DNA of 64,000 nucleotides, from sequence record MW822008.1; one strand, given 5' to 3'. The notes below the pieces were generated by a model that had not been told where the DNA came from, did no database searches, and saw only the letters and a program-made list of their open reading frames with translations. Below, piece by piece: positions 2,495-53,010 of this stretch. Source of the stretch: Escherichia phage BF17. The translations under genes were made by a program, and so were the position numbers. Each line of letters starts with the position of its first letter. The first letter of the stretch is position 1.

Positions 2495-2776
2495 ATGGAT
2501 TTTTATCTACACACATGGACATACGAACAATATATTACATTATATCTTGAAATTATTAACACAGAACCTAGGTGTGGTTGTTGGTTCGCAGATATCATAA
2601 AAGAGTATGCTGACGAGTTCGAGTTTGTGTATCTTGGGTCTGATATATTTGTAAAAAGTGTAGGTAAAACCGGACGAATCACTGATATAGATTACGACAC
2701 TGTTAGTGTTAATTTCTATGTTGATTTTCCTGATACTGGCGTTGATGGTGTATATTGTCTTTATGAAATAATTTAA
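2495..2776 (+). CDS. small hypothetical protein (paralog family-like)
   Basis: 93-aa ORF; motif FVYLGSDIFVKSVG; followed by terminator. Confidence 0.5.
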   Translation: MDFYLHTWTYEQYITLYLEIINTEPRCGCWFADIIKEYADEFEFVYLGSDIFVKSVGKTGRITDIDYDTVSVNFYVDFPDTGVDGVYCLYEII

Positions 2777-2783
2777 ATTCTTA

Positions 2784-2808
2784 GGCCAGCGTTTGCTGGT
2801 CTTTTTTC
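2784..2808 (+). terminator. rho-independent terminator
   Basis: GCCAGC-GTTT-GCTGGT hairpin followed by TCTTTTTT. Confidence 0.6.
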
Positions 2809-2820
2809 GCAGGTACAAAG

Positions 2821-3123
2821 ATGTTCAGTATAGATTTAATTAACAGTACTATCAAAATGTTGGCTGATTTGGTGAGACAATCCAATGGAACTTTATATCC
2901 ATCAATGTATAAAATGTTTGACCGATACATCAAGGATTGTAACATATCATTATATGGACTTACTGTTGATATAGACGATTACTATGGAATTAATACTTCA
3001 TATAAAACAGGAATTTTAATTGGTATTAATATAAAGATGGGGTATTTCCCTTATTACTGTATAGGATTACCAGATAATACTTTGGTAGAATATCCAGCCA
3101 GTACTATTAAATTAAGAGGATAA
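2821..3123 (+). CDS. hypothetical protein
   Basis: 100-aa ORF. Confidence 0.5.
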   Translation: MFSIDLINSTIKMLADLVRQSNGTLYPSMYKMFDRYIKDCNISLYGLTVDIDDYYGINTSYKTGILIGINIKMGYFPYYCIGLPDNTLVEYPASTIKLRG

Positions 3124-3130
3124 AACTAAA

Positions 3131-3709
3131 ATGAATGTATTAGAATTAAGTACTAAGCTGATTAGTATGCGTAATGAGTGGTACGATTGGTTTTATAATG
3201 GTACTGATATGAATTTTTCAAAATATCCATTTATGGAATCAGGATGTGATTCAAGATACCGCTGGTTGAGCAAAAGTGATTCTGGTTTACATATTAGAAT
3301 CGATGATAGTGGTCGAGGAATTATACACGATTTACTTCAAGTTGATCAATTCGTCCATGACAATTGGTGTGATAACGATCCATACCTTGGAAATATGATT
3401 TATATAAGTGAAGATGATTGCGTATTCGTTATCCAGCGACATGGTAATTCTATGTTTTATGTAGCAGACAGCAGTACACCAGAAGGTGCAGCAGCCGATG
3501 GACTTATGCCTAAGATTGATATATTGGAATTTGGATTACCTGAGCACTTCCAGATTAGTACTTTATACGATATTCCACCACTTGAGTTCTTTGAAGAATT
3601 TAAATTGTACTTCAATGATCTTCAAAAATTGAGTACTGATAGACGCATTGAAATAACTGTTAAGTACATGGACGGAACGAAATTAACCGATACGGGGATA
3701 GAATTTTGA
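3131..3709 (+). CDS. hypothetical protein
   Basis: 192-aa ORF. Confidence 0.55.
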   Translation: MNVLELSTKLISMRNEWYDWFYNGTDMNFSKYPFMESGCDSRYRWLSKSDSGLHIRIDDSGRGIIHDLLQVDQFVHDNWCDNDPYLGNMIYISEDDCVFVIQRHGNSMFYVADSSTPEGAAADGLMPKIDILEFGLPEHFQISTLYDIPPLEFFEEFKLYFNDLQKLSTDRRIEITVKYMDGTKLTDTGIEF

Positions 3710-4395
3710 TTAAAGATTTAGATAGAATTTTATATGTACTAAGGGGTGTAATTACATTACATCCACAAATCAATCGAATTGAAAGTACATTTCAGTTGGA
3801 GTCAAGAGAAACTCCATATTCACATATATCAAATGTAGTTGGTTCACTCAGTACTGAAGACTCGTCTTACGATATTTGTGTATGTGAAGTACAACCAAGT
3901 TCGGATCTTGGATTTGCTATTTTTGATAAAAATCAAAATCTCATTAGTATGTTTCAGTGCAATAATCCTTTTTGGAAAACATGCCTGTATCCAGAGTGGG
4001 CTATGCTTGATCCAACCAAGAGTACCATTAAAGTTTATGACTCTAAAAATGATGAAGTCGTTATTGATTTAGATGAGTCAATGTCAGAGGAAGAACACTT
4101 TCAGCTAATGATGATGCGTGCTATGCCTGAATACAATGCAATGATTAACACAGTGCAATACATTAAGGATACCATGCCAGCGTTGCGTACACATGAGTTT
4201 TGTCATCCGGTATTGTATGAACATCTAGATTTAGACTTCAGTACTATTAAATTTAAAGATAGTGTTAAAAAATATATTCAAGAGAATGTTAAATTTGATT
4301 TTATTAGTACTATGAACAATAATCCAAAAACTAATTTTAGGCATCAGTACAATGAATCTTTGTCTAATGGACGTGATACCAGTTGGTGGAAATAA
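3706..4395 (+). CDS. hypothetical protein
   Basis: 229-aa ORF, ATGA overlap with upstream gene. Confidence 0.55.
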   Translation: MIKDLDRILYVLRGVITLHPQINRIESTFQLESRETPYSHISNVVGSLSTEDSSYDICVCEVQPSSDLGFAIFDKNQNLISMFQCNNPFWKTCLYPEWAMLDPTKSTIKVYDSKNDEVVIDLDESMSEEEHFQLMMMRAMPEYNAMINTVQYIKDTMPALRTHEFCHPVLYEHLDLDFSTIKFKDSVKKYIQENVKFDFISTMNNNPKTNFRHQYNESLSNGRDTSWWK

Positions 4396-4396
4396 T

Positions 4397-4660
4397 ATGA
4401 ATATTCAAGATAGATTACAATTACTGTACACACTTGAACAGGCTGCTTATGATCTTGTTCGAAAAATCTCAGATGAACTACCTAAAGGAACTAAAGTTCG
4501 TGTACGTGAGATGAATTATTTTTCTGGAGTAATTGAAGAACAAGTACTAACAGTGAATAAAGTAACATACTATGAATCTGAGTTGTCTATTCAGTGTGAA
4601 TCTGATGATGGATTAATATCATATTATGGAACTGATGTAGATATAGAGGTAATAAAATGA
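4397..4660 (+). CDS. small hypothetical protein (paralog family)
   Basis: ORF 4352..4660 trimmed to ATG after upstream stop; motif GTKVRVREM. Confidence 0.5.
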   Translation: MNIQDRLQLLYTLEQAAYDLVRKISDELPKGTKVRVREMNYFSGVIEEQVLTVNKVTYYESELSIQCESDDGLISYYGTDVDIEVIK

Positions 4661-5799
4661 CCCTTTTGCAAATATATGAAGATTTAATGCACTTATGTAA
4701 TACAAACGATGCATTCTTTTATGTGGATCATAAAAGTCCTGCTGGTGGCACGTATCGTGTATTCAGTTATCGTCTAGCATCATACACTGATTTCATGCAA
4801 CCAAATGCGTTGGAAACCCGTGGCTCTATGTGGGAAATTGATGAAGAAGGTGACATGATACGTTGTGCAGCACGTACAATGAAAAAGTTCTTCAATGCTT
4901 ACGAGAATCCTGCTACAATGTTCCCTGCTAACACCACATGCGATGACATTGCGGTAGTGATGCCTAAGTTGGATGGCTCGATCATCAGTACTTATCGTGA
5001 TAATGATGGTGAGATTCGTTGTAAATCACATACTGCATTGTATTCTGACCATGCGATTAACAGCACTCGACTTATTAACGAGAACCAGAATTTGTATCAG
5101 TACATCGACGAAGCGGAACGTTTAGGTTACACAGTTAATATGGAGTATACAAGCCCAGAGTACCGAATTGTATTACCATATCAGGTAGAACAACTGTTTG
5201 TACTGAACGTTCGTCATCGTGTGAGTGGTGAGTTGCTTTGTGGTAAAGCACTACGTGATAAGTTTCCATGTCTTGCACAGTACAGTACTAATATGACTGG
5301 AAAAGATATTCATCACACTTTTCCGGTACGAAATACCTTCCGTGAAAGCGTGGAGGAAGTTCATAAAATGCTTGATATTGAGGGTTTTGTGTGCATCCTA
5401 AATAATGGGACAATGTGTAAAATAAAGACTGACTGGTACAGTTCATTACATCTTACAAAAGATAGTATTATTATTGATTCTCATTTATATGAAGCAGTAT
5501 TAAATGGTTCAAGTGATGATTTAAAACAATTGTTCAGTACTGATGAATATGCTATGCAAAAGATATTAAGAATGGAACAATTGGTATTTTCGTGCTATAA
5601 TGCATTACAAGATGAAGTAGAAAGCTTCGTCAAGGAACACAAGCACTTGGAGCGAAAGGAATTCGCAATGAAGGTTCAGGAGTGTTTAACTAATGAACTG
5701 AATCGTCAGGGCTTGGCCTTTGCAATGTATAACAATAAGAAAGTTGATTACAAAGAGACTCTTATAAAATACATGAAAATTGTACTAAAGGATTTTTAG
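4657..5799 (+). CDS. rnlA: RNA ligase 1 (T4 RnlA-like)
   Basis: 380 aa; N-terminus, FFY, YRVFSY, LE.RG and KxDGS nucleotidyl-lysine motif align with T4 Rnl1 (recalled from memory). Confidence 0.85.
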   Translation: MTLLQIYEDLMHLCNTNDAFFYVDHKSPAGGTYRVFSYRLASYTDFMQPNALETRGSMWEIDEEGDMIRCAARTMKKFFNAYENPATMFPANTTCDDIAVVMPKLDGSIISTYRDNDGEIRCKSHTALYSDHAINSTRLINENQNLYQYIDEAERLGYTVNMEYTSPEYRIVLPYQVEQLFVLNVRHRVSGELLCGKALRDKFPCLAQYSTNMTGKDIHHTFPVRNTFRESVEEVHKMLDIEGFVCILNNGTMCKIKTDWYSSLHLTKDSIIIDSHLYEAVLNGSSDDLKQLFSTDEYAMQKILRMEQLVFSCYNALQDEVESFVKEHKHLERKEFAMKVQECLTNELNRQGLAFAMYNNKKVDYKETLIKYMKIVLKDF

Positions 5800-5829
5800 T
5801 ACTATCTAGCCTAAGCACAAGGAGAAGTG

Positions 5830-6084
5830 ATGGCTAAACCTAAGTATAAAAATGACGGTTCCCTTTCTCCGACTGAGTTCAGGAAAATACAAGAAGAAAT
5901 CGATGAATTACAGCACAAACGCTCAATGAAAGGTGTGAAGATAAGTAAGAAACGAATCGAGAATACCTTCGGATGTAGTAGTACTGAATACAAGAAGAAA
6001 AGGAAACCAAAAGGTGTTAAGCCGAGAATACATGATGTAACTCGCTATACATCGAAACGTGAAAATAAATTTGATCCACTATAA
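5830..6084 (+). CDS. small basic protein
   Basis: ORF 5827..6084; ATG at 5830 after AAGGAG; K/R-rich C-terminus. Confidence 0.5.
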   Translation: MAKPKYKNDGSLSPTEFRKIQEEIDELQHKRSMKGVKISKKRIENTFGCSSTEYKKKRKPKGVKPRIHDVTRYTSKRENKFDPL

Positions 6085-6093
6085 GGAGTTCAT

Positions 6094-6330
6094 ATGAAAG
6101 TTGAAGTTCAGCATAGTATTGTTCAGGATATGTCAGTAGTTAAATTTCTTTCTCTGAAAGATTACTTCAGATGTATCAAGTTCCTAGAAGAATCTCAATT
6201 ACAGTGGACCCCATTAAAGTACAGTTCATCCAATGATACTGCTAGTATTCGTTGTGATGAATCTGTACTTGTGAAAATCTCCAAGCGATTTGGAGTTGGG
6301 AAATATAATGATAAACAATGCACAAAGTAA
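6094..6330 (+). CDS. hypothetical protein
   Basis: 78-aa ORF. Confidence 0.45.
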   Translation: MKVEVQHSIVQDMSVVKFLSLKDYFRCIKFLEESQLQWTPLKYSSSNDTASIRCDESVLVKISKRFGVGKYNDKQCTK

Positions 6331-6619
6331 TTTACTATATATAAAGTCAGTAGAAGCTGAAATTAAAAATTCAGTACAAACTATCGTCGATGAAATGATT
6401 GACAAATACAAGAGCAATCTTATTGGGAAGAAAGTCAGATGTTGGGATTACACATTCAAACACTGGTACGATTCCGAGATTGTGAAAGTTGATGTGAATA
6501 CTGATAGTAATGGTCTAATTAATGGTATTGCGTATATTGGTGTTTTAATACGCAAGGGAACACCACAGGAATGGCTAACTTATCATAATATAGAGCATGT
6601 TAAATTTTTAGAGGATTAA
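6308..6619 (+). CDS. small hypothetical protein (paralog family)
   Basis: ORF 6290..6619, internal ATG; motif NLIGKKVRCWDY. Confidence 0.45.
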   Translation: MINNAQSNLLYIKSVEAEIKNSVQTIVDEMIDKYKSNLIGKKVRCWDYTFKHWYDSEIVKVDVNTDSNGLINGIAYIGVLIRKGTPQEWLTYHNIEHVKFLED

Positions 6620-6622
6620 AGG

Positions 6623-7555
6623 ATGCCAACTATCACACTAACAGTTGGATTGCCTGGGTGTGGTAAAACTACATGGGCAGTGCAAGAGATTAAAAACGCC
6701 AAATCCAAGACTATCAACATCAACCGTGATGATATTCGTGAATCTATGGCTGGGTCACATGATGCTTACAAATTCAACGATGCTAATGAGCAGTACGTAA
6801 CTAATTTACAGTTCAGTGCAGCAAATTCAGCAGCAGAGAATGGTTGGAACATCATCATATCCGATACAAACCTTAAACAACATTTCCGTAATCTCTGGAA
6901 AGTATGGGCTAAAGATAATGGTTATGATTACAAAGAAAAGAACTTCTATGATGATTTTGTACCTAATGAAGACCGTGGTGCAGATGTTCATGAATTCTTT
7001 AAGATTAAAGAGTTCGTAAAACTTTGTAAGAAATATAACCTCCAGCGTGAGCGTTCAGTACAAGATGATATCATTGACACAATGGCAGATACGTACTATT
7101 ATAGTAAGGCATTACACATTGGTTACTATGGTAATTCACGCGAAGCTGCTATCATCGTTGATATCGATGGAACTCTTGCTCATAAATGGGGTCGTAATCC
7201 TTACGATGAAAGTACTGTTCTTCAGGATACACCTGATGAAGAAGTTATTTTGTCTATTATCGCTGAAGCAGTTTTTCATAAACGCAAGATTATCGTCATG
7301 AGTGGGCGTACTGAAGGGTGTCGTGCTGATACCGAACAGTGGCTTAAGAATTGGGGTGTTCCTTACGATGCATTGTTTATGCGAGATATCGATGATAAAC
7401 GTCCTGATGATGTTGTAAAATTCGACCTGTACATGAAAAATGTGGTTGATCATTACGATGTTAAAAAGGTATATGATGACCGCGATCAAGTTGTATTCAT
7501 GTGGCGTAAGCTACTTGGGTTGAAAGTTTTCCAAGTGGCTGAAGGAAATTTCTAA
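6623..7555 (+). CDS. pseT: polynucleotide 5'-kinase/3'-phosphatase (T4 PseT-like)
   Basis: 310 aa; P-loop GLPGCGKTT, NINRDD, HAD phosphatase motif VDIDGTLA, C-terminal WQVAEGNF closely match T4 Pnk. Confidence 0.9.
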   Translation: MPTITLTVGLPGCGKTTWAVQEIKNAKSKTININRDDIRESMAGSHDAYKFNDANEQYVTNLQFSAANSAAENGWNIIISDTNLKQHFRNLWKVWAKDNGYDYKEKNFYDDFVPNEDRGADVHEFFKIKEFVKLCKKYNLQRERSVQDDIIDTMADTYYYSKALHIGYYGNSREAAIIVDIDGTLAHKWGRNPYDESTVLQDTPDEEVILSIIAEAVFHKRKIIVMSGRTEGCRADTEQWLKNWGVPYDALFMRDIDDKRPDDVVKFDLYMKNVVDHYDVKKVYDDRDQVVFMWRKLLGLKVFQVAEGNF

Positions 7556-7562
7556 TACAAAA

Positions 7563-7590
7563 GGGATCATATATTGGTCCCTTTTTCTTT
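7563..7590 (+). terminator. rho-independent terminator
   Basis: GGGATC/GGTCCC hairpin with G-U pair, then TTTTTCTTTT. Confidence 0.6.
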
Positions 7591-7622
7591 TAAGGTACAT
7601 TATAGTGAATGTAACAACACAG

Positions 7623-7781
7623 ATGTTATTACAAAAAGACTACTTAGAAAATATAGAACGATACTATAGATTGTCTTTGTATGAAAATAAGCATAAAAAT
7701 TATAGTTTTGATAAACTACTAAATTCCAGTACTGATGATTATCTATTTTCATCAATGTTTTATGTGAGAGGTTTATTATAA
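7623..7781 (+). CDS. possible small ORF (52 aa)
   Basis: ATG ORF ending in TAATG overlap with next gene; not in track; weak. Confidence 0.25.
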   Translation: MLLQKDYLENIERYYRLSLYENKHKNYSFDKLLNSSTDDYLFSSMFYVRGLL

Positions 7782-8041
7782 TGGATAAATTTCACACAGA
7801 TATAACACAGATAGGTAATCTTATCAATAGTCTAATTACTGATTTAGAAGAAAAGTACTTAGGTCGAAATGTATACGTAGAAATGTATGAAACATATGGT
7901 GTTATTGATATGATTTATTACAGTGCATTGAAGTGTGAAATACGTTTAACAGTATGTTTGTTTGAAAAAAATACATTCAACAGAAGTACTGCAATTCGCC
8001 AAGTTGGAGTTGATGATATAGAATTATACGAGGAACAATGA
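7781..8041 (+). CDS. small hypothetical protein (paralog family)
   Basis: 86-aa ORF; motif EEKYLGRNVYVEMY. Confidence 0.5.
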   Translation: MDKFHTDITQIGNLINSLITDLEEKYLGRNVYVEMYETYGVIDMIYYSALKCEIRLTVCLFEKNTFNRSTAIRQVGVDDIELYEEQ

Positions 8042-8292
8042 TGTTTGAGCAGGACTTAGAGATATTCAAAAGTCATATTGATTACTTGACTATATTAGAA
8101 AATGATTTAACTACAAAGTACAAAGGCATTCGTGTTCTGTGCTGGTATGATGATTGGGATTATAAACGTGAACTCACGATTGATCGAATTTATTTCAGTG
8201 ACGGTGTACTAAATGTACATGGTGTAAATGATTTTGGTCATTCATATACATATTCTAATAATGCTAAATTTAAAAGGATCTACAATGAATGA
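8038..8292 (+). CDS. small hypothetical protein (paralog family)
   Basis: 84-aa ORF; motif TKYKGIRVLCWYDD. Confidence 0.5.
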   Translation: MMFEQDLEIFKSHIDYLTILENDLTTKYKGIRVLCWYDDWDYKRELTIDRIYFSDGVLNVHGVNDFGHSYTYSNNAKFKRIYNE

Positions 8293-8587
8293 ATATTATC
8301 ATAATTTATTCGATTACATAAAACTAATAGATGATCTTTCTTTTGAATTTCTCAGTACTGAAAAAGTTCTTGAACCTCTCTATTATGATTGTATTAGTTC
8401 ACTATGTTTAGATGAAAAAGAGATATTAGCAAACAACTTACCATCCACGGTCTGTACAATCAATGGTTCCAAGGCATTAGTGTGCGAGGTTAATTTTCAT
8501 AAATCACTTAATACAATTGTTTACAAGTTCGATAACACTTGGGTAAATCATGTAACCAGTAATATTAAATCTGTGAGATTTTTATGA
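8285..8587 (+). CDS. hypothetical protein
   Basis: ORF 8228..8587 trimmed to ATG overlapping upstream stop. Confidence 0.5.
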   Translation: MNEYYHNLFDYIKLIDDLSFEFLSTEKVLEPLYYDCISSLCLDEKEILANNLPSTVCTINGSKALVCEVNFHKSLNTIVYKFDNTWVNHVTSNIKSVRFL

Positions 8588-8880
8588 ATATAAAAAAATT
8601 ATTTGAACAAGTAAATTTATTGTACTGGTGTTCAGACGGTTCAGATAAGGAATATAGTGAAGTTTATTTAGAACTGTTTAGAACTGAAATTCATCAAATT
8701 CGAAGATACCTAATTGATAACAAAACTAAAGTACAAGTAAGATACCATAACGGTACTTTAAAGAATGGTGTAATTATTGGATTGATAGTTACACGAATGT
8801 CTAATAATATTAAAGTTGCAGTTAGATTAATGACTGATGATGGTGTCTACACAATAGAAGCTAGTGAGATTATATATTAA
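8584..8880 (+). CDS. hypothetical protein
   Basis: 98-aa ORF, ATGA overlap. Confidence 0.5.
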   Translation: MNIKKLFEQVNLLYWCSDGSDKEYSEVYLELFRTEIHQIRRYLIDNKTKVQVRYHNGTLKNGVIIGLIVTRMSNNIKVAVRLMTDDGVYTIEASEIIY

Positions 8881-9186
8881 ATGGATATACAAACATTCAA
8901 TAAACTTAAGTACTATGATGATGGTTTTGCATTAATAATTAACGAACTTGATGGAATACCATACGAATATCATAATCAAGTAATGAAGATAATAAAATGT
9001 ATATGTGAAGAATTAAAAAGTATATTTAAAAATGAATATGTTTATGATTTAGGTAATAATAGCAAAAAACTATACATAAAGAAATTCTGGGGAACGCATT
9101 GCGGTTTGATGGTCGATTTAGGTTTAAGTTTAGACGATAATTCTGAATCATGTTCATTATATATAGATGAAATGCGAATATCATGA
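8881..9186 (+). CDS. hypothetical protein
   Basis: 101-aa ORF directly abutting upstream stop. Confidence 0.5.
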   Translation: MDIQTFNKLKYYDDGFALIINELDGIPYEYHNQVMKIIKCICEELKSIFKNEYVYDLGNNSKKLYIKKFWGTHCGLMVDLGLSLDDNSESCSLYIDEMRIS

Positions 9187-9212
9187 GACGTATCAGAATT
9201 CGGTGATATAAT
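9184..9212 (+). promoter_or_regulatory. candidate early promoter (extended -10)
   Basis: TGAGAC ... 17 nt ... TGATATAAT; -10 lies inside GGTGAT/ATCACC inverted repeat. Confidence 0.35.
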
Positions 9213-9243
9213 TTGATTACATCACCAATAGGGAGAAGTTGAA

Positions 9244-9570
9244 GTGAATGGTTCGTTTTTAACAATATTAGAAAAGACAACCGAGATGCTTTCTAGCTCG
9301 TTAATGCAGATTTTCAGTACTAATAATTTATACAATACCCAGGTGTTAGATTCAATTAATAATAACTATGTGGTAAGTATATCTGATGAAATATGTCCAT
9401 TTAATGCGTATTCAATTTATAGTGTAGAAGAGTTTCATATATCCGAGATTCGATGTGGTTTTGGTGCTTGGTTAGTTCTAAATGAACGTTCAGGGTTGTC
9501 TTTATACATCGAAGAAGTTAGTAAATTTATATACAAAGGAGTAGAATATGTTAACCCCAATTATTCTTAG
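9244..9570 (+). CDS. hypothetical protein (GTG start)
   Basis: 108-aa ORF, GTG start preceded by GGGAGAAG. Confidence 0.45.
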   Translation: MNGSFLTILEKTTEMLSSSLMQIFSTNNLYNTQVLDSINNNYVVSISDEICPFNAYSIYSVEEFHISEIRCGFGAWLVLNERSGLSLYIEEVSKFIYKGVEYVNPNYS

Positions 9571-10201
9571 CAGTGCATATGTAATCGGTATTATTATTTC
9601 TGGTATGCTTGCATATAACTATAACCGAAGTGTTCTAGGTTATGTAGTACTTGGTACAGTACTAAGTCCAGTGATTGCCATTGGTCTTCTTGTTATGCTA
9701 GGTGAGAAAAATACAAGCTTCTTTATTACTAAAGAACTTGATAAAATCACTCCAGCACCAGAAACAGTTATTCCAGAAGTTAAAGAAGAAGTTAAAGAAG
9801 AAGTTAAAGAAGAAGTTAAAGAAGTTGAAGTTCAAATGCAAGTTAAAGTGTATAATACACTTGAAGAAACTGATCCTAAAGTTGTAGTGAATGTAGTTCC
9901 AGTCGTTGAAGATGTGAAACCAAAAGCTCCTAAAGTACAGAAAAATACTAAAACTGCAAAGAAAGCTCGTTACACTAAAGGTAAGAACAAAGGTAAATCT
10001 AAGGATGAACCACAACTAGGTGTTCATGACCATACTGCACAAATTGCAACGGCAGCGACCGCAGCAGCAATCGTAACATCACCAATCTACAACAATGATG
10101 ATTACAGTGATTATAGCCGTCACAGCAGTTCTTCCTCTGATTCTTGTTCCTATGATAGCTCTAGTTCTGATTCAAGTTCATCGTCTGGAAGTTGTGATTA
10201 A
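9548..10201 (+). CDS. membrane protein with EVKE repeats and Ser-rich C-terminus
   Basis: 217 aa; two N-terminal hydrophobic helices; (EEVK)x4 from 12-bp tandem repeat; C-terminal SSSSDSxS tract. Confidence 0.55.
   Translation: MLTPIILSSAYVIGIIISGMLAYNYNRSVLGYVVLGTVLSPVIAIGLLVMLGEKNTSFFITKELDKITPAPETVIPEVKEEVKEEVKEEVKEVEVQMQVKVYNTLEETDPKVVVNVVPVVEDVKPKAPKVQKNTKTAKKARYTKGKNKGKSKDEPQLGVHDHTAQIATAATAAAIVTSPIYNNDDYSDYSRHSSSSSDSCSYDSSSSDSSSSSGSCD
9779..9824 (+). repeat. 12-bp tandem repeat (GTTAAAGAAGAA) about 4 copies, in-frame
   Basis: Direct reading of sequence; encodes VKEE repeats. Confidence 0.8.
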
Positions 10202-10530
10202 TGTCAATGAAACCACTAATTCAACATAATATTTTTTATAGGTCATTATTCAAAATTCAAGATGATTTTTATCAGACGTTGAGTAATGATCTTATAGGTA
10301 AAACTGTACGATATTCGGAACAATACATCAAACGTATGACAAGTGAGTATATTGACCCTGAATACGAATACGACATTGAACACATTAATCCCAATACTAG
10401 AATGAAAATCATTGAGATATTTAAGAATGGGAGAACTATAGGTGCTGAAATTGAGTACTTGAATTGTGATTGTTACATAGATACCGAGTTAAGTTTGGAT
10501 TATCTTGTTTTAGTGGATGATGAGGAATAA
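10201..10530 (+). CDS. small hypothetical protein (paralog family)
   Basis: 109-aa ORF; motif NDLIGKTVRYSEQY; TAATG overlap. Confidence 0.5.
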   Translation: MSMKPLIQHNIFYRSLFKIQDDFYQTLSNDLIGKTVRYSEQYIKRMTSEYIDPEYEYDIEHINPNTRMKIIEIFKNGRTIGAEIEYLNCDCYIDTELSLDYLVLVDDEE

Positions 10531-11750: not shown

Positions 11751-12020
11751 ATGCATGATGTAGTTAAAAAATATTTGAATGATAGATATATTATGAAAAA
11801 ATCTATTAATTCTATCCTAAAAGACCATGCAAATCAAATACGTGAGATTCTATCAAATAAACTTATTGGTTGTTCAGTTGAGTTCAACTACAAAAAGAAT
11901 GTCGTGAAGGTTGGAGTTATTAAACGTGTAGTTGCTGTTTATGACCAAGATGTATATGTTGAAATAGAATATGATGGTAAATTATCACAATTAAGTACTG
12001 AAGATTTAACATTTTTATAA
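11751..12020 (+). CDS. small hypothetical protein (paralog family)
   Basis: 89-aa ORF; motif NKLIGCSVEFNY. Confidence 0.5.
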   Translation: MHDVVKKYLNDRYIMKKSINSILKDHANQIREILSNKLIGCSVEFNYKKNVVKVGVIKRVVAVYDQDVYVEIEYDGKLSQLSTEDLTFL

Positions 12021-12030
12021 GGAAATAGAA

Positions 12031-12258
12031 ATGAAAGTAATTCAAGTTATGGTAGAAAAATACCAAACTGAAGATGGTCGTATTTTTGATTCAGCTAAAC
12101 AAGCTGAACACCATGAACGTATTATTTCTGGTGCACGTAAAGTATGTCCTACATGTAATGGAACACAACAAGTACCGTCAGAAGATTACCGCAGCTTTTA
12201 TGCTTGTCCACACTGTGATGGGAAAGGCTACGTAGAAAAACAAGAGGTATGGAAATGA
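12031..12258 (+). CDS. small zinc-ribbon protein
   Basis: 75 aa; CPTC ... CPHC. Confidence 0.5.
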   Translation: MKVIQVMVEKYQTEDGRIFDSAKQAEHHERIISGARKVCPTCNGTQQVPSEDYRSFYACPHCDGKGYVEKQEVWK

Positions 12259-12668
12259 AATTGTATTGCTTAACTAATATGTACTGCCAAGGTGTCCAAG
12301 CTGGTATTCAAGCATTCCATGCTGGTGTTAAACTAATTAAAGAATATGAAGGTACTGCTTTCAGTACTATTATTGATGAATGGTACTATGAACACGAAAC
12401 TATTGTAGTACTAAATGCTGGTGGACATGATAAGTTAAATTCTTATTATAACAACCTTAGCAAACAGGGAAAAGTTCCGTTTGCCAAATTCAATGAAGCT
12501 GGATTGAATGATGCTATTACCTGTGTAGCAGTACTGTGTACGTCTGAAATGATTGAAGACATGGCTGTTATGCGTATGAATCTTCCTGCTGGTGATCAAC
12601 TAATGCAAGTAAAATATGGTGCATTGTTTGACACATTAAAAGCAATCAGCACAATGAGGACAATTTGA
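12249..12668 (+). CDS. hypothetical protein
   Basis: 139-aa ORF overlapping neighbours by a few nt. Confidence 0.5.
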   Translation: MEMKLYCLTNMYCQGVQAGIQAFHAGVKLIKEYEGTAFSTIIDEWYYEHETIVVLNAGGHDKLNSYYNNLSKQGKVPFAKFNEAGLNDAITCVAVLCTSEMIEDMAVMRMNLPAGDQLMQVKYGALFDTLKAISTMRTI

Positions 12669-13867
12669 TGGATTTTCCAGAGAAGTTATTTGTTGCACGT
12701 TCCTATGTAAACCACAACCAAGTTGATGGTTTTATTATCGATGCAACAAAATCACATACAAAAGCGTTTGAAACAAAGAAAGAGAGAGCAGAGTACTGGG
12801 CAAAGAAGAACAATCTTCCATCGTTATATATTGACAACGTTCCAACTACGGGATTTTGTGTAGTTGATAAATTAACAACTCATGCACGAGAAACATATTT
12901 CACGATCCGTCACCCAGAAGGATTTGAATTTATGATTAGTGCAAAAAACATGAATGATTTAATTATCAATAACGATATAATCAAAGGTGTTTTTGTAGAC
13001 CCAATGTTTTTCAACAATAACTTAGAATTAATTAATGGTAAAACAAAAACGTTTGCTAAGTTAGTTGAAAAAGAAAATAAAAAAGAACAACAAAAAGAAA
13101 CTGTAGCAGGTCTTAAAGTTGGTGATGGTTTCACTTATCTTAAAGAAGATTACTATTACTGCGGTAAAGTACATGCAATTTGTATAAAGAAAACTAAAGA
13201 ATTTGCATATCCCGACAAAAGTTCAGTTTATCATTTACTTTTTAACAGTACTCGTGGAACTTATGCATTGAATCAACGTTTGGATAATTACAATCTTGAA
13301 CCTCGTGCACTCTTGAATAAGAAGACTACGGCAGATGAAGAAATTAAACTTGCTAATGAATTTTGGCAAAGCTATAGAACAAACAGACATAACCCATTAG
13401 GTGAATCTAACATTCCAGTACTGGTACACAATAAATCATTTAAAGCAAAAGACCTTAAAATTAAATACGAAGAAATAAATGTTGATGATCTTATGAATAA
13501 TGGACGTTTCAACGAGAACGTACCATTTATGACTAAAGATAATGAACAAACATATCGCGTATTTTTTGGTGTAAGTAATAATACAACGCGTAGTTATTAT
13601 GGGCGTAGTGGAGATTATAATATCCATTATAATGATAAATTTGAACGCTTTAGTGCATATCCAGTTCAAATTGATGATAATGGGATTATGGTAATGGATG
13701 TTGATATTAATGAACACTCATCATTTAGTACATGGAATGGCTATCGTTCCCCATTCTTCCCACCAAATGAACGCAAAACATCAAGCACTCGTTACTACCA
13801 AGACAAACCATGTCACGTTCAACTATCAATTAGTAATCCACTTTATATTGGAAAGTATTATCTATAA
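12665..13867 (+). CDS. hypothetical protein (400 aa)
   Basis: long ORF, ATGA overlap; no motif recognised. Confidence 0.55.
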   Translation: MMDFPEKLFVARSYVNHNQVDGFIIDATKSHTKAFETKKERAEYWAKKNNLPSLYIDNVPTTGFCVVDKLTTHARETYFTIRHPEGFEFMISAKNMNDLIINNDIIKGVFVDPMFFNNNLELINGKTKTFAKLVEKENKKEQQKETVAGLKVGDGFTYLKEDYYYCGKVHAICIKKTKEFAYPDKSSVYHLLFNSTRGTYALNQRLDNYNLEPRALLNKKTTADEEIKLANEFWQSYRTNRHNPLGESNIPVLVHNKSFKAKDLKIKYEEINVDDLMNNGRFNENVPFMTKDNEQTYRVFFGVSNNTTRSYYGRSGDYNIHYNDKFERFSAYPVQIDDNGIMVMDVDINEHSSFSTWNGYRSPFFPPNERKTSSTRYYQDKPCHVQLSISNPLYIGKYYL

Positions 13868-13878
13868 AGGAATATACA

Positions 13879-15297
13879 ATGAGCATTTTAGCAATTCTTG
13901 AAAGCATTAAAAATACTAGCAGTACTCTGGGCAAAAAGGCTATTCTTGAACAAAATAAAGATAATGTAACTTTACAAAAAGTACTGAAATATACTCTAGA
14001 CCCTTCTATCGTTAGTGGCTATAAGAAGCTCCCTGCCGCTGATGACGTATATCAACATATGACGTTAGATGAAGCAATTGATAAGCTAGAATGCATTTAC
14101 AAGCGTGATGTGACAGGAAATGCGGGGCGTGATTTCATTGCTTCAGTACTGGGTTCTGTATCTGAAGATGATCAGGAAGTTCTACGTAGAATGCTCACTA
14201 AGAACCTTGATTGTGGTATTCAGGAGAAGAACTGCAATGATGTGTTTGGTAAAGGATTCATCAAAGACGAACCATATATGCGTTGTTCTTTGATTGACAA
14301 AAAGACTGCAAAGAACATCAACTTCAAAGATTATGGTTACGCTATATCAGAAGTGAAAATGGATGGTCAGTACTTAAACCACGTTGTCATTAATGGTTCA
14401 TTAACTTCTACATCCCGTAATGGTAAACTATACGACTTCCTGGGTTGTCGTGATGGTGAGATGGCAGGTCTTGCTCACATCATCCAAAGTAAAGATGAAC
14501 GTTTTAGTAGTGGTGTAGTCTTTATGGGGGAAGGTGTAGTACTGGACAATGATGGAGAAACCATTCTCCCACGCACTACTGGCAACGGTATAATTCAGAA
14601 AGCTGGTAAAGATAGCATCAGTCAGAATGAAGCAATGCGTACTGTATTCGTTCTATGGGATGTTGTTCCATATGATGCATTTTGTGAAGGTGTATGGGAT
14701 GTAAAACGTAAAGAACGTCGCGAGATCTTAGTAGATGCAATTAACGAACTCAATAGTGATTTTGTTCGTATGGTTGGATTCCGTAAAGTTCTAAACATCA
14801 AAGAAGCATTTGAGTACAATAGTGAACTAATGAACGAAGGTGAAGAGGGTTCAGTACTGAAATGTGAAGATGGTATCTGGAAATCTCATACTTCACCTAA
14901 GCAGTTGAAAATGAAATTGAAAATGCAACTGGACTTACGTATTGTTGGTTTCAATGAAGGTGAAGGTAAACGTAAAGGAAGCCTAGGTTCTTTACAACTG
15001 GAAAGTGCTTGTGGTTCATTGAAAGTTAATGTGGGTACTGGTATCAAAGAGAAAGATGCTGAATGGACATTTAAAACCATTTGGGAAAGAATGCAAGAAC
15101 TTATTGGTAAAGTGGTTACAGTTGAGTGTAATGACATTGTATTCGACAAGCGTACTGGTGAGCCATCACTGTTCTTACCAGTGTTTATTGAATTTAGATT
15201 TGACAAAAACACTTGTGATGATTATACTCGTATCTTAGAAATTCGTGAGAGTGCTGTTGAAGTGTTCTCAAACAGTATTATTGACGCATTAGGTTAA
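13879..15297 (+). CDS. ATP-dependent DNA ligase (T4 gp30-like)
   Basis: 472 aa; N-terminus (ILxxL, KAILEQNKDN) and adenylation-lysine region (KMDGQ) align with T4 DNA ligase. Confidence 0.9.
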   Translation: MSILAILESIKNTSSTLGKKAILEQNKDNVTLQKVLKYTLDPSIVSGYKKLPAADDVYQHMTLDEAIDKLECIYKRDVTGNAGRDFIASVLGSVSEDDQEVLRRMLTKNLDCGIQEKNCNDVFGKGFIKDEPYMRCSLIDKKTAKNINFKDYGYAISEVKMDGQYLNHVVINGSLTSTSRNGKLYDFLGCRDGEMAGLAHIIQSKDERFSSGVVFMGEGVVLDNDGETILPRTTGNGIIQKAGKDSISQNEAMRTVFVLWDVVPYDAFCEGVWDVKRKERREILVDAINELNSDFVRMVGFRKVLNIKEAFEYNSELMNEGEEGSVLKCEDGIWKSHTSPKQLKMKLKMQLDLRIVGFNEGEGKRKGSLGSLQLESACGSLKVNVGTGIKEKDAEWTFKTIWERMQELIGKVVTVECNDIVFDKRTGEPSLFLPVFIEFRFDKNTCDDYTRILEIRESAVEVFSNSIIDALG

Positions 15298-15316
15298 CCA
15301 TTTATTGGAGGTGATT

Positions 15317-16108
15317 ATGAAATTTGTTGTAACATCTGATGTACACGGTGGGACTGATTACCTCCATAGTGGTGATTACAGTGATACAGTACTGATTATT
15401 GCTGGGGACTTCGATGAAGTTAAACGCAGTCGTTACCGTACTGGTATAGAATCACTATGTAAGCAGTTTAAGAATGTAGTACTGGTTCCAGGCAATCATG
15501 AATATTATGGTTCCAATATCCACAAAACGCATAAAGTACTGTCCGATATGCAAGATGAGATTCCAAATTTCATCTTTTTGCAAAACAAATTTGTATGGCT
15601 GGACGGAGTACTGCTTGTTGGTAGTACTCTGTGGACAGACTTCGATAAAGGTAATTCTTTGACGAAGTTTGATGCTCGTCTGAAGATGAACGATTACAAA
15701 CATATCCGTCATGGAACAACATCAGAGCCTTGGCGTAAGAAACTGACACCAGATGATACTGAGTTTATGCATCACAAAGATAAACAATTTATCAAAAATT
15801 CTATTGACACAGTTCGCTTTATGCATGATAATGATTTCAAGGTCATCGTGGTTACCCATCACGCACCAAGTTATCAAAGTGTTTCACCAAAATATAAAAA
15901 TGATTCACTGAATGGTTGTTACTGTTCCGATATGGATCAGTACATTGAAGATTTGGGTGCTGATGTTTGGATTCATGGTCATGTTCATAGTAGTTTTGAC
16001 TACCACATTGGTAAGACACGTATCATTTGTAATCCACGAGGCTATGAATCATACAGTGGAGCTTGTGAGAATTTTGATTACAATCCTAAATTTGTATTTG
16101 AAATTTAA
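15317..16108 (+). CDS. calcineurin-like metallophosphoesterase
   Basis: SDVHGG, GNHEYYG, VTHHAP, GHVHSS motifs; ATG after GGAGGTGA. Confidence 0.7.
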   Translation: MKFVVTSDVHGGTDYLHSGDYSDTVLIIAGDFDEVKRSRYRTGIESLCKQFKNVVLVPGNHEYYGSNIHKTHKVLSDMQDEIPNFIFLQNKFVWLDGVLLVGSTLWTDFDKGNSLTKFDARLKMNDYKHIRHGTTSEPWRKKLTPDDTEFMHHKDKQFIKNSIDTVRFMHDNDFKVIVVTHHAPSYQSVSPKYKNDSLNGCYCSDMDQYIEDLGADVWIHGHVHSSFDYHIGKTRIICNPRGYESYSGACENFDYNPKFVFEI

Positions 16109-22705: not shown

Positions 22706-23464
22706 TTGAATATGATATCAGAAAAATTTATAAGCAATGAAGGTAAAAAGCGATTACTGATTATATCAGGTGCAGGACTTTCTGTTGAAAGTGGTATGGA
22801 ACCTTTTCGATTTGATGATGGTTTGTGGGATACATTTAAAATTAATGATGTATGTAACATTGCTAGTTTAACTACAAAATATCATGTTGTTCATTCTTTC
22901 TATAATACATTACGTGTAAAATTGGGACAATGCGAACCGAATGCAATGCATTATTTTATAAAATCGTTAGAAGATCAATATGGTGATTGCTTCCTTCATA
23001 TGACTTCTAACATGGACGATCTTTATACTCGTATTGGTGGTCATGAGCTTAAACTTCATGGAAACTTGTGCGAAGTTATTGAAAATTATAGTATCAATTC
23101 CGATGATTATAATGTTATTAACTGCGGATACGAACCATACATACCAAAACATGATGTTTTTGCTAAACCAAATGTAGTAATGATTGGAGAATATCATCGT
23201 TATGTTGATGGTATTCGCTTACCAATTTACGAAGAACGAAATAATGTGTTGAAATCTCTTAATGAAAATGATACAGTTATTGTAATTGGTAGTAGCGATA
23301 CAGTACTGGTATGGTCGAGATTAGCAGCAGCATTACCATGTTATAGTGTTAATGTTAACATTCGTAAAAATGATAATGATTTTTTGTTTAATGAAAAAGT
23401 TATCAAGCCAGCAACCAAAGCAATACCGCATCTAGAGACTATAATTAAGGAACGTATGAAATGA
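22706..23464 (+). CDS. Sir2-family (sirtuin-like) protein
   Basis: GAGLSVESGMEPFR NAD-binding motif near N-terminus, HG motif (LKLHGNL), C-terminal VIVIGSS Rossmann strand. Confidence 0.6.
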   Translation: MNMISEKFISNEGKKRLLIISGAGLSVESGMEPFRFDDGLWDTFKINDVCNIASLTTKYHVVHSFYNTLRVKLGQCEPNAMHYFIKSLEDQYGDCFLHMTSNMDDLYTRIGGHELKLHGNLCEVIENYSINSDDYNVINCGYEPYIPKHDVFAKPNVVMIGEYHRYVDGIRLPIYEERNNVLKSLNENDTVIVIGSSDTVLVWSRLAAALPCYSVNVNIRKNDNDFLFNEKVIKPATKAIPHLETIIKERMK

Positions 23465-24012
23465 GTGTTAAAGAAGTTCCCTTTGGTGAATATGGCACAC
23501 GTGCAAATTTTGTATTTTGTTATTTCTTTGCAAGAAAATGCAACCCTTACAAAAACTATGAGTTGAATGATATACCAGAAGTAAATTTAGTATTACTGCA
23601 ATTACGATGGGATGGTCTTCTTGGTGGATGTGGTGGAACCGTAGAAAGTACTGATATCTCACTAGAAGATGCGTTGCGTCGTGAAGTTCAAGAAGAAATG
23701 GATTACAATATTTTTGTTTCCCATCTTCGACCACTCAAAACTTTTGAAATTTACCCAGGTGCAAACAGTCACAGTTTTAGCTATGAAGTAACCTATGACG
23801 AGTTGAAACACATTAGAGATGGATACACTAATGCTAAACATGCAAGTGCAGAAGTTGCTGGTGTAAATTTATGTCATATTTCTCGTTATTCTAAGGGACA
23901 AAATCGAGAAGCGGGATATAATAATCTTATGACACAGAACTTCATCGGTACAGCAAAACAAGAATTGGAGTATCTGGTTCAAAAAGAAAACTTACTAATT
24001 AGTTATCTATAG
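23461..24012 (+). CDS. Nudix hydrolase
   Basis: Nudix box GGTVESTDISLEDALRREVQEEMDY (G-x5-E-x7-REVxEE). Confidence 0.7.
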   Translation: MSVKEVPFGEYGTRANFVFCYFFARKCNPYKNYELNDIPEVNLVLLQLRWDGLLGGCGGTVESTDISLEDALRREVQEEMDYNIFVSHLRPLKTFEIYPGANSHSFSYEVTYDELKHIRDGYTNAKHASAEVAGVNLCHISRYSKGQNREAGYNNLMTQNFIGTAKQELEYLVQKENLLISYL

Positions 24013-24701: not shown

Positions 24702-26141
24702 ATGAAAAAATATACAATTGACACAAACGTACTACTATCTGACCCGAATGCATCTATTGCTTTTGATGGTGCTGCAATCATTCTACCATTTACAGTACTG
24801 GAAGAATTGGATTCAATTAAGAGTCGTAATGTAGATGTTTCACGCGATGCTCGTGTTGCTATTCGTAACATTGAAGCAATTATTGCAGATGCATCACATG
24901 ATGAGATTAGTAGTACTGGTGTTAATATTGCTGATGTTCATACCAATATGAATCCTGATAGCAAATTGTTTGTTATTACAAACGAAGAAGCTGAAGCACT
25001 AATTCGTACTAAAGGTTCAGAAGAGAAAGTTCAAACCCTTCTCAAAAGCACAGTACCTGATGATAAAATCATTCTGGTAGCTTTAGCAACAGAATCAGTA
25101 CTGGTAACTCGTGATATCAACATGCGTATCAAAGCACTAAGTTATGGTGTCGAGGTACAAGATTATCGCCATGATATTGTTATTGGTGATAGTGATTTGA
25201 TTCACATTGGTCAACACCATTTGGAAATTAATTTTTGGGAAGTATATAGCAACTTATCCAATACTAATATTCAATCCGAACAAGTTGGTCGTCGTTTGTA
25301 TCATTACATTTCTAAAAGCTTGATTGAACATTTGCTTCCACAAAATCTATGCATCGGTGATTATCTATATGATGATGCAGACGTATTATTTGTGTACGAA
25401 GGTCAATCAGCAATTGAGGAAGATGATGGAACACTAACACCAGAAGATATTTTGGTATTCCAAGATATTGGACAATCAGTAGCTTTACGTGCTAAAGTAT
25501 GGGATATTAAAGCAAAGAATATCCAACAAGCACTCGCCATCAACAGTATTCTCGATCCTGATGTACATCTAACAGTACTGCTAGGTTCTGCTGGTACTGG
25601 TAAAACACTAATTACGATTGCTACTGCATTAGAATTAGTACTGGAAAAACGTAAATACGACCGAATCATCTTCTCTAAAACTCAAGACTCACAGTTTGAA
25701 GATATTGGTTTCTTGCCAGGTTCAGAAGCAGAAAAAGTGATTCCATTCTGTGGAGCCGCAATTGACGCGTTAGAGTTTCTTCATAAAGATGATGCTAACC
25801 CACAAGGTAGTATTGAAGAGATTATGAAACGTAATGTTATTCAATTTAAAGCACTAAACTTTGTACGTGGACGTTCATTCACCAACACTATTCTAGTAGT
25901 TGATGAATTCCAAAACATTACACCTGCACAAGCCAAAACAATCTTGACACGAGCAGGATTAAACTGTAAAGTAGTAATTATGGGTAACTTGAGTCAGATT
26001 GACAGTAAGTTTATTAGTCCTGTTAACAGTGGTTTGACATATGTAACTGAGAAGTTTAAAGATTGGGCAGGTTGTCGTGTCATCGAACTTGAAGGTGTTG
26101 TTCGCTCACCACTAGCTGAATTTGCTGAAGAAAATATGTAA
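24702..26141 (+). CDS. phoH: PIN-domain PhoH-like ATPase
   Basis: 479 aa; N-terminal PIN-like region (IDTNVLL), Walker A GSAGTGKT, Walker B VVDEFQN typical of PhoH/YlaK. Confidence 0.85.
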   Translation: MKKYTIDTNVLLSDPNASIAFDGAAIILPFTVLEELDSIKSRNVDVSRDARVAIRNIEAIIADASHDEISSTGVNIADVHTNMNPDSKLFVITNEEAEALIRTKGSEEKVQTLLKSTVPDDKIILVALATESVLVTRDINMRIKALSYGVEVQDYRHDIVIGDSDLIHIGQHHLEINFWEVYSNLSNTNIQSEQVGRRLYHYISKSLIEHLLPQNLCIGDYLYDDADVLFVYEGQSAIEEDDGTLTPEDILVFQDIGQSVALRAKVWDIKAKNIQQALAINSILDPDVHLTVLLGSAGTGKTLITIATALELVLEKRKYDRIIFSKTQDSQFEDIGFLPGSEAEKVIPFCGAAIDALEFLHKDDANPQGSIEEIMKRNVIQFKALNFVRGRSFTNTILVVDEFQNITPAQAKTILTRAGLNCKVVIMGNLSQIDSKFISPVNSGLTYVTEKFKDWAGCRVIELEGVVRSPLAEFAEENM

Positions 26142-52972: not shown

Positions 52973-52999
52973 GAGTCGCTATGACTCTCCTTTTCTTTT
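52973..52999 (+). terminator. possible terminator
   Basis: GAGTC-GCTAT-GACTC then TCCTTTTCTTTT; short stem. Confidence 0.35.
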
Positions 53000-53010
53000 G
53001 GAGAAATAAT

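Follow-up and report, generated by a model that had tools for sequence, protein, structure and literature searches.

The window, a stretch of 64,000 nucleotides from Escherichia phage BF17, encodes a predicted T4-type RNA ligase 1 (rnlA) and a predicted bifunctional 5'-kinase/3'-phosphatase (pnk, or pseT). This pair is probably the form that heal-and-seal RNA repair of the T4 type takes in Rak2-like jumbo phages. The source of the window is a well-sequenced jumbo coliphage of the genus Asteriusvirus with a genome of approximately 350 kb, which is not a member of the Straboviridae, and the window was 99.5% identical to phage SP27 and 99.4% identical to phage PBECO4. Family membership, domain architecture, near-complete sets of catalytic residues, gene order and clade-wide conservation were established for the pair. 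Its presence in Asteriusvirus is already known from annotations and published discussion, which makes the finding correct but unremarkable. Both genes carry annotation in existing GenBank records. The 2013 paper on phage RaK2 describes a tRNA repair toolkit and its likely anti-Prr role (PMC3622015), and the 2020 paper on phAPEC6, a phage of the same genus, suggests the same role against anticodon nucleases as is inferred here (PMC7247149). The jumbo phage survey of 2021 likewise covers this toolkit and its likely anti-Prr role (PMC7824862). The pair is a textbook case of a virus mending the damage caused by a host suicide defence. Its occurrence in a jumbo coliphage of ~350 kb shows how widely this repair strategy has spread, as databases and papers already record.

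The rnlA gene is located at 4657-5799 on the plus strand and encodes 380 amino acids, with a nucleotidyltransferase domain followed by an Rnl1-specific C-terminal domain. The start ATG overlaps the stop codon of the upstream ORF (ATGA). The protein scored 58.8 bits against Pfam RNA_lig_T4_1 (cut-off 28.3) and 62.4 bits against T4_Rnl1_C (cut-off 27), the latter over residues 268-379. In T4 Rnl1 this all-helical C-terminal domain confers tRNA specificity. The NCBIfam equivalog TIGR02308 ("T4 RnlA family RNA ligase") was matched with 292.6 bits (cut-off 242.25) across model positions 2-355 of 373, and PHROG 562 was matched at 3e-109. Identity to T4 RnlA was 36% over residues 5-341 (E 5e-64), and PDB entry 2c5u was matched at 1.5e-56.

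The nucleotidyltransferase motifs were present as motif I (K104-L-D-G-S), motif IV (E242-G243) and motif V (K255-I-K257). They align with T4 K99, E227/G228 and K240/K242 and are invariant in the four phages aligned. Invariant positions in this alignment were R54, K75, F77, K99, D101, G102, E159, E227, G228, K240 and K242 in T4, corresponding to R55, K77, F79, K104, D106, G107, E163, E242, G243, K255 and K257 in the window. Wang, Ho and Shuman reportedly found in 2003 that R54, K75, F77, K119 and E159 are the essential residues of T4 Rnl1 outside the shared motifs. Eleven of the twelve T4 Rnl1 residues regarded as essential were invariant. The exception was K119, which is His125 in the window and also His in the other Rak2-like orthologues, RaK2 and pEa_SNUABM_50; the neighbouring K117 is invariant. 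The 380-aa protein is classed as a putative RNA ligase 1 of the T4 RnlA family.

The pnk gene is located at 6623-7555 on the plus strand and encodes 310 amino acids. An N-terminal P-loop kinase is fused to a C-terminal DxDxT HAD phosphatase in one polypeptide, with AAA_33 matched at 50.5 bits over residues 5-102 and HAD_PNKP at 149.6 bits over residues 175-310. The protein was 34% identical to T4 PseT from end to end (E 1e-48) and matched PDB entry 1ltq at 2.7e-40. T4 residues K15, D35, R38, D165, D167, R176, S211, R213, D254, K258 and D278 were invariant in the Pnkp alignment, their equivalents in the window being K15, D36, R39, D180, D182, R191, S227, R229, D262, K266 and D286. The kinase active site of T4 comprises K15, D35 and R126, along with S16 and R38; S16 is T16 in the window. 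R176, R213 and D254 are among the residues of the T4 phosphatase. Its active site further includes D165 (the nucleophile), D167, S211, K258 and D278 (PMC3592404), and all phosphatase and kinase residues named in that paper are kept except the lid arginine. T4 R126 in the lid aligns with Q141, and an arginine is found one column later (R142) in all three jumbo phage orthologues. R142 is probably the counterpart of R126. Next to it the kinase domain is longer than that of T4 by an insertion of approximately 19 residues, whose centre is at residues 114-129.

One annotation, that of phage Sharanji, would make the protein a zeta-toxin-type kinase. The label "zeta toxin" is carried by OR545507.1 and a Pfam Zeta_toxin match of 20.2 bits was obtained, but this weak match does not reach the cut-off (22.3 bits) and is confined to the common P-loop. 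The HAD_PNKP score and the end-to-end alignment to T4 Pnkp with its catalytic residues kept make this reading hardly credible, and the annotation was rejected as refuted by the domain architecture. The 310-aa protein has the features of a full-length T4-type Pnkp and is assigned to that family. The sequence-only reading had named an RNA ligase 1 of 380 aa and a polynucleotide kinase/phosphatase of 310 aa within 4657-7555, and all of its statements that could be checked were borne out. ORFs were found exactly as given, curated cut-offs were cleared, both proteins align with the crystallised T4 enzymes along their whole length, and both fall inside their families.

In T4 the order and strand are the same as in the window, with rnlA (gp63) followed by a few small genes and pseT. 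The synteny that the earlier reading had proposed to examine matched in both order and orientation. The T4 proteins belong to the same two families and share the domain architectures and nearly all catalytic residues, although identity is only 34-36% and the window pair differs in the change of Lys119 to His, the shift of the lid Arg by one position and the kinase insertion of ~19 residues. Other T4-like phages also keep the rnlA-pseT order, with gaps of 1.9 kb in F13076 and 2.3 kb in pzk-kv8.

The linkage bears on the possibility that there is no functional pair at all, with Rnl1 chiefly attaching tail fibres, as T4 gp63 does in its second activity, and Pnkp working mainly on DNA ends as a 3'-phosphatase of DNA metabolism. 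PHROG 562 and several GenBank records use the name "RNA ligase and tail fiber protein attachment catalyst", but this name is carried over from T4, and the ligase catalytic residues and tRNA-specificity domain are clearly conserved. The presence of a DNA ligase gene 6 kb downstream also favours this reading. The strict linkage of rnlA to pnk across T4-like and Rak2-like phages argues instead for a joint function, and separate roles of this kind are very unlikely.

The pair was retained in 33 of the 35 matching Asteriusvirus-type records. It was also retained in RaK2, pEa_SNUABM_50, CBB-like phages and metagenomic relatives at 57-67% identity, and retention at this distance argues for purifying selection on both genes. 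The homologues in RaK2 (gp464, RNA ligase, and gp470, Pnk), PBECO4, phAPEC6, G17 and 121Q are orthologues of the window pair, with identities of 99-100% within Asteriusvirus and 64% in RaK2. The RaK2 and Asteriusvirus loci share with the window a conserved core of two small genes, orf84 and orf78, between the enzymes. The sole difference between these loci is in the number (0 to 3) and identity of variable acidic small genes in the same slot.

Three small plus strand genes separate rnlA from pnk in the window, in agreement with the sequence-only reading. The first, orf84 (5830-6084), encodes a basic protein of 84 aa (pI 10.1) assigned to PHROG 15306, which is of unknown function. Its ATG is preceded by the ribosome-binding site AAGGAG. 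Homologues occupied the first position after rnlA in all eight Rak2-like loci examined and had a pI of 10.1-10.5 throughout. Identity was 85% in locus L011, 58-61% in L008 and L009 and 39% over 31 residues in L012; the RaK2 copy was detected only by BLASTP and phmmer (32% over 37 residues). The second gene, orf78 (6094-6330), encodes a small beta-beta-alpha-beta-beta-alpha protein of 78 aa. It was likewise located between rnlA and pnk in 8/8 Rak2-like loci, and its conservation equals that of the RnlA and Pnkp enzymes. An exhaustive profile search yielded three real clusters for orf78. Five long proteins returned by that search were each matched in several short stretches and were read as spurious.

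Both orf84 and orf78 were restricted to Rak2-like jumbo phages, and within these they invariably occupied the rnlA-pnk slot. This, together with the enzyme-like conservation of orf78, raises the tentative possibility of a four-gene module (rnlA-orf84-orf78-pnk) in place of a two-gene pair, with orf84 and orf78 as dedicated partners of the repair enzymes. In that capacity they could adapt the enzymes to tRNA by binding it, regulate them, or inhibit the host nuclease whose damage is being mended. Such a module, if real, would extend the classic T4 pathway in a way specific to this lineage. Being co-inherited with the enzymes across several genera, the two genes are cheap and specific targets in the search for unknown helpers of T4-type repair.

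The last position in the slot is taken by orf103 (6308-6619, plus strand, 103 aa), a variable cassette gene. G17/121Q-type genomes have two genes in its place, one of which is 34% identical to it. Salmonella phage SD-2_S15 lacks orf103 through a deletion that runs precisely from the orf103 start codon up to the coding sequence of pnk, with flanks that are ~99% identical. A single large paralogous family comprising the acidic small ORFs around the pair was considered and dropped on weak evidence. The only members brought together by iterative searching with HMMs were orf103, its relative in G17, the gene that precedes rnlA in RaK2 and the window ORF at 11751-12020, and an all-against-all phmmer comparison of the window ORFs gave little support.

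The slot of T4 holds alc, pseT.3, pseT.2 and pseT.1 and that of the window holds orf84, orf78 and orf103; the two gene sets have no recognisable similarity to each other. No similarity was found between the slot genes and T4 alc, pseT.1, pseT.2, pseT.3, cd.3-5 or 31.1-2. In all these phages the content of the rnlA-pseT space varies. The sequence-only reading had stressed that the spanin genes flanking pseT in T4 lie 43 kb away. A two-gene spanin pair was indeed predicted at 49269-49948 on the plus strand, 41.7 kb after the end of pnk and thus near the distance given. The i-spanin (49269-49643) has an N-terminal membrane helix and matched PHROG 1152 ("Rz-like spanin") at 6.6e-29, and the o-spanin (49640-49948) has the lipobox LIISGC. 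The implied relocation was not supported, as the slot is variable and no pairwise BLASTP similarity was found between the window spanins and T4 PseT.3 or PseT.2 (E 26 and 1.9). The absence of spanins beside pnk means little because the layout is the same as in T4, the rnlA-pseT gap simply being filled differently (alc and spanins in T4).

A terminator-like hairpin with an 11-bp stem and a T-rich tail is located directly after pnk on the plus strand (7559-7585), and a terminator is annotated at the same place in the G17 record. The preceding long-stemmed site of this type on the plus strand is at 2783-2802. Given these two sites, the genes from rnlA to pnk would form the 3' end of one tightly packed plus strand transcription unit. 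A sigma-70 promoter scan of 2500-10500 was uninformative (41 sites compared to 46.8 expected).

During infection by T4 the anticodon nuclease PrrC is unleashed by the T4 Stp peptide. For the window pair we infer the enzyme activities, co-transcription, a tRNA substrate and a role as a counter-measure against host anticodon nucleases such as PrrC or RloC, this role being drawn by analogy with T4. Following the T4 repair mechanism (PMC3592404, PMC11494293), the HAD domain of Pnkp would remove the cyclic phosphate via an aspartyl-phosphate intermediate (D180, D182) and the 5'-OH would receive its phosphate from the P-loop kinase domain (K15, D36). Rnl1, charged with AMP by its own reaction at K104, would then pass the AMP on to the 5'-phosphate and seal the break, with its C-terminal domain directing it to tRNA. 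Bacterial Pnkp/Hen1 and fungal Trl1 carry out the same chemistry, with a kinase, a phosphoesterase and an ATP-dependent ligase acting on 2',3'>P / 5'-OH breaks. These systems have metallophosphoesterase or 2H healing modules and ligases of other clades fused into one polypeptide, whereas the window encodes an HAD phosphatase and a separate Rnl1.

The pair could alternatively serve phage RNA housekeeping by maturing or repairing phage tRNAs, or by resealing RNAs nicked by phage ribonucleases such as PIN-PhoH. A PIN-PhoH protein (24702-26141), a CCA enzyme and a PTH2 protein are encoded in the window. RaK2 and its relatives have a few tRNA genes besides a CCA enzyme, the setting in which the repair genes were presented by the RaK2 authors (PMC3622015). 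Scans of the whole window predicted no tRNA gene and no Rfam RNA; thus nothing there links the pair to a specific substrate, and the lack of tRNA genes near the pair speaks against housekeeping. The pair is also kept in phages with very different tRNA complements, and T4, the sole tested system, needs it only on prr hosts (PMC11494293). Housekeeping is therefore an unlikely main function, and heal-and-seal repair of the T4 type is preferred.

Further predicted RNA repair genes are present in the window. An RlaP-family (RNA-ligase-associated Pol-beta) nucleotidyltransferase is encoded at 43992-45224 on the plus strand (Pfam PF10127, 59.2 bits, cut-off 23, with only the N-terminal 120 residues aligned; PHROG 388 at 3e-76). 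In bacteria, RlaP extends the damaged 3' ends of RNA by 1-2 nucleotides (PMC12776372). A PTH2-type peptidyl-tRNA hydrolase candidate is located at 12249-12668 on the plus strand (Pfam PTH2, 25.2 bits, cut-off 23), and PTH2 has been noted in RaK2 (PMC3622015) and other jumbo phages (PMC7824862). The CCA-adding enzyme and the 2H phosphoesterase reported by the sequence-only reading were both recovered. The former is a class II CCA-adding-type tRNA nucleotidyltransferase (61960-63075, plus strand) with a PolyA_pol head and RNA-binding domains. The E. coli-type model "multifunctional CCA addition/repair protein" was matched over its residues 1-204 (278.8 bits) but not in its C-terminal half, and PHROG 2244 was matched at 2.9e-115.

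The latter is a compact 2H phosphoesterase candidate of 136 aa (58467-58877, plus strand). Both H-x-T/S-x motifs were present (HVSI at 57 and HITI at 127), and across 26 sequences H57, H127 and T129 were invariant and S59 nearly so. The Pfam 2H-SAK score of 23.5 bits was below the cut-off of 27; PF22547 was carried by 23/25 homologue clusters. The AlphaFold2 model had a pLDDT of 87, and its top Foldseek matches in the PDB were all 2H enzymes (Usb1, LigT), although these were weak (E 0.04-0.5, TM ~0.4).

The sequence-only reading had described the toolkit as unusually complete. This stands in comparison with phages in general but not with group 2/3 jumbo phages, in which RNA repair kits are common (Iyer et al. 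2021, PMC7824862). With those kits the window shares Rnl1, PNK-HAD, RlaP, the CCA enzyme, a 2H-SAK-type protein and PTH2. Unlike them, no Rnl2, RtcB, Thg1 or KptA was seen among the window ORFs scanned, and the genes are scattered over 58 kb and not contained in one operon. The toolkit is thus typical for the clade, though larger than the earlier listing through the addition of RlaP and PTH2. None of the PADLOC models matched rnlA, pnk, the genes of the slot, RlaP or the 2H candidate.

At the DNA level the palindrome AGTACT occurred approximately 10 times more often than expected, both throughout the window and in related phages. Nothing relevant to this motif in these phages was found in the literature. 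The excess suggests that the motif has a function in the DNA of this clade that has gone unrecognised; modification of CAGTACTG or specific binding there would account for it.

Megablast of the 2.9 kb region carrying the RNA ligase gene rnlA and the polynucleotide kinase-phosphatase gene pnk (pseT) matched 35 phage records, led by Escherichia phages SP27 (99.5%) and PBECO4 (99.4%). The matches were all to E. coli or Salmonella phages, and every record examined was assigned to the genus Asteriusvirus (genome size 320-386 kb). The PBECO4 RefSeq record labels the pair 'RNA ligase and tail fiber protein attachment catalyst' and 'polynucleotide kinase'. The window therefore comes from a Rak2-like jumbo phage rather than a T4-like one. 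The coordinates given for the 380-aa ORF rnlA (4657-5799) and the 310-aa ORF pnk (6623-7555) in the sequence-only reading are exact, and reading the DNA directly bore out the three small genes that it placed between them, all on the plus strand. These start with ATG at 5830 (orf84, to 6084), 6094 (orf78, to 6330) and 6308 (orf103, to 6619), the first two preceded by AAGGAG. The genes of this slot are tightly packed, with only overlaps or gaps of a few bases. A hairpin with an 11-bp stem and a T-rich tail lies directly 3' of pnk (7559-7585), and a terminator is annotated at the same spot in the G17 record. A sigma-70 promoter scan was no better than chance, so it is the packing alone that points to co-transcription.

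The 380-aa protein falls inside the RNA ligase 1 (Rnl1) family. It scored above the cut-off for each of the two Rnl1 Pfam domains and reached 292.6 bits on the T4 RnlA equivalog model of NCBIfam (cut-off 242.25). Identity to T4 RnlA was 36%, and T4 Rnl1 crystal structures were matched at about 1e-56. In a four-way alignment of the window, T4, RaK2 and pEa_SNUABM_50 proteins, R54, K75, F77, K99, D101, G102, E159, E227, G228, K240 and K242 (T4 numbering) were invariant. T4 K119 is replaced by His in all three jumbo phages. These twelve residues are those reportedly listed as essential for T4 Rnl1 by Wang, Ho and Shuman (2003).

The 310-aa protein likewise belongs to the Pnk family. It comprises a P-loop kinase domain and a HAD_PNKP phosphatase domain (149.6 bits) and aligned end to end with T4 PseT (34% identity) and with PDB 1ltq. 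The catalytic residues of T4 Pnkp are K15, D35 and R126 in the kinase and D165, D167, S211, K258 and D278 in the phosphatase (PMC3592404), and all are invariant except R126. This residue aligned with Gln141; the very next position, adjoining an insertion of about 19 residues, holds an Arg conserved in all three jumbo orthologues. The label 'zeta toxin' in one GenBank record was rejected, since the hit behind it (20.2 bits, under the cut-off) covers nothing but the shared P-loop.

T4 carries rnlA, alc, pseT.3, pseT.2, pseT.1 and pseT in that order on a single strand, so the window has the same gene order and orientation but a differently filled gap. Other T4-like phages also keep the rnlA-pseT order; the gap measures 1.9 kb in F13076 and 2.3 kb in pzk-kv8. 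Homologues of Rnl1 were present in 1631 phage records and those of Pnkp in 2135. The spanin pair of the window consists of a gene with a membrane helix and a PHROG match to Rz-like spanins (49269-49643) and a gene with the lipobox LIISGC (49640-49948). Neither showed pairwise BLASTP similarity to T4 PseT.3 or PseT.2. Spanins are indeed absent from beside pnk, as had been remarked, but their absence gives no sign of a rearranged T4-like locus. The alc and spanin genes of T4 are occupants of a slot that is variable everywhere.

The proposed tRNA-repair pair was correctly found and soundly interpreted. By homology, the two enzymes would follow the heal-and-seal pathway of T4. RnlA and Pnkp probably form an active RNA repair pair, and a specific role against anticodon nucleases is also probable, to a somewhat lesser degree. 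The pair is already known. The RaK2 paper grouped a CCA enzyme, Pnk (gp470), Pth2 and an RNA ligase (gp464) into a possible pathway of tRNA repair (PMC3622015). In a survey of 224 jumbo phages Rnl1, PNK-HAD, RlaP, CCA enzyme, 2H and PTH2 were common in groups 2 and 3 (PMC7824862).

The slot was compared in eight loci: the window, G17, SD-2_S15, RaK2, pEa_SNUABM_50, one contig of CBB-like type and two metagenomic contigs. In all eight, rnlA is immediately followed by the gene for a small basic protein (57-84 aa, pI 10.1-10.5), and a homologue of orf78 (70-86 aa) is present as well. Both small genes are orphans. Further acidic small proteins number 0-3 per locus and differ between loci. Against five divergent loci identity was 59-67% for RnlA, 57-65% for Pnk, 64-69% for orf78 and 39-85% for orf84, and orf78 is as conserved as the two enzymes. 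No tblastn match to orf84 was found in RaK2. Six of the nine small ORFs flanking the region had no match in the five divergent loci; only up102 (in RaK2) and up192 and up229 (in relative L011) were detected, at 29-35% identity. The orf78 product has a beta-beta-alpha-beta-beta-alpha fold, and 18 alignment columns are invariant, a large share of them polar (H7, S8, Q11, D12, K17, Y24, Y43, S44, S45, S51, R53 and E56). It fell into 30 clusters among 5.8 billion proteins, all named ones being from Rak2-like phages; a profile search run exhaustively on 1.84 billion representatives gave no more distant relatives beyond that clade.

The third slot gene (6308-6619), directly upstream of pnk, is a true cassette. 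PBECO4-type phages have a single gene here, the G17/121Q type has two genes in its stead (L002 3152-3727) and Salmonella phage SD-2_S15 has none (L003 3150-3160). The SD-2_S15 deletion is precise, running from the start codon of the third gene to the pnk coding sequence, and the flanks are about 99% identical across cassette variants. In the CBB-like contigs (L009 4621-5298, L010 4626-5291) an opposite-strand gene follows directly after pnk and overlaps its end. This gene, absent from the window, has a faint match to NUMOD3 (homing-endonuclease type).

The wider toolkit named in the sequence-only reading is present as far as it went, with a CCA-type enzyme and a 2H candidate, but RlaP and PTH2 genes had been overlooked. 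The CCA-type enzyme (61960-63075) strongly matched the E. coli-type model for multifunctional CCA addition/repair, but over the catalytic half only (positions 1-204 of 409). The rest of the model, which holds the HD phosphohydrolase domain, was not matched by the C-terminal 165 or so residues of the enzyme. Two H-x-S/T motifs are conserved in the 136-aa protein (58467-58877). The 2H-SAK Pfam domain is present in most of its homologues, and its predicted model weakly resembles Usb1 and LigT. The RlaP-family (RNA-ligase-associated Pol-beta) nucleotidyltransferase (43992-45224) scored 59.2 bits, and the Pfam model covers only its N-terminal 120 or so residues. Bacterial RlaP was recently shown to add 1-2 nucleotides to damaged RNA 3' ends (PMC12776372). 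The gene is 37 kb from rnlA, immediately upstream of tail and tail-fibre genes. The PTH2-type hydrolase candidate lies at 12249-12668.

The window contains 172 copies of the palindrome AGTACT, an approximately 10-fold excess over the 16.9 ± 3.8 obtained by dinucleotide shuffling; for CAGTACTG the count is 38 against 0.64 expected. Of the 64 hexamer palindromes only AGTACT stands out, being 8 times as frequent as composition predicts (next highest 2.2 times); at least a dozen of the others do not occur in the window. AGTACT is present in all three reading frames, and a synonymous-codon shuffle keeps only 69 ± 5 copies. The sites (for example 3849, 5535, 7727 and 8353) are evenly spaced with no link to gene starts. 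Density was 2.4-4.0 per kb in PBECO4, RaK2, pEa_SNUABM_50 and related contigs (loci L001, L004, L005, L007, L008, L009, L011 and L012) and 0.2 per kb in T4. No paper was found on AGTACT excess in Rak2-like phages. The palindrome may mark sites of binding, modification or recombination.

Elsewhere in the window, an NAD/ADP-ribose-type gene set comprises Sir2 (22706-23464) overlapping a Nudt16-like Nudix gene (23461-24012), a gene whose product has a WGR domain at its C-terminus (28407-29378) and a further Nudix gene (63182-63595). A macro-domain gene annotated in PBECO4 would fall just past the window end. A PIN-domain and PhoH ATPase fusion, a possible RNase, is encoded at 24702-26141 and an HPF/RaiA-type ribosome hibernation factor at 59987-60319. 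A 400-aa protein (12665-13867) had no Pfam match and belongs to a PHROG without known function; its gene is directly followed by a T4-type DNA ligase (13879-15297) and a metallophosphoesterase (15305-16108). Adjacent paralogue sets lie at 35882-38578, 38590-39177 and 39104-41923, at 41991-43591, at 52981-53628 and 54364-54951, and at 61002-61824. Among them are two roughly 900-aa proteins (phmmer 3e-64) flanking a 195-aa relative, and a tandem of three paralogues, each about 170-190 aa long. ORF 9548-10201 contains, at 9759-9848, a 12-nt tandem repeat (GAAGAAGTTAAA-like) that encodes an EEVK-type repeat.
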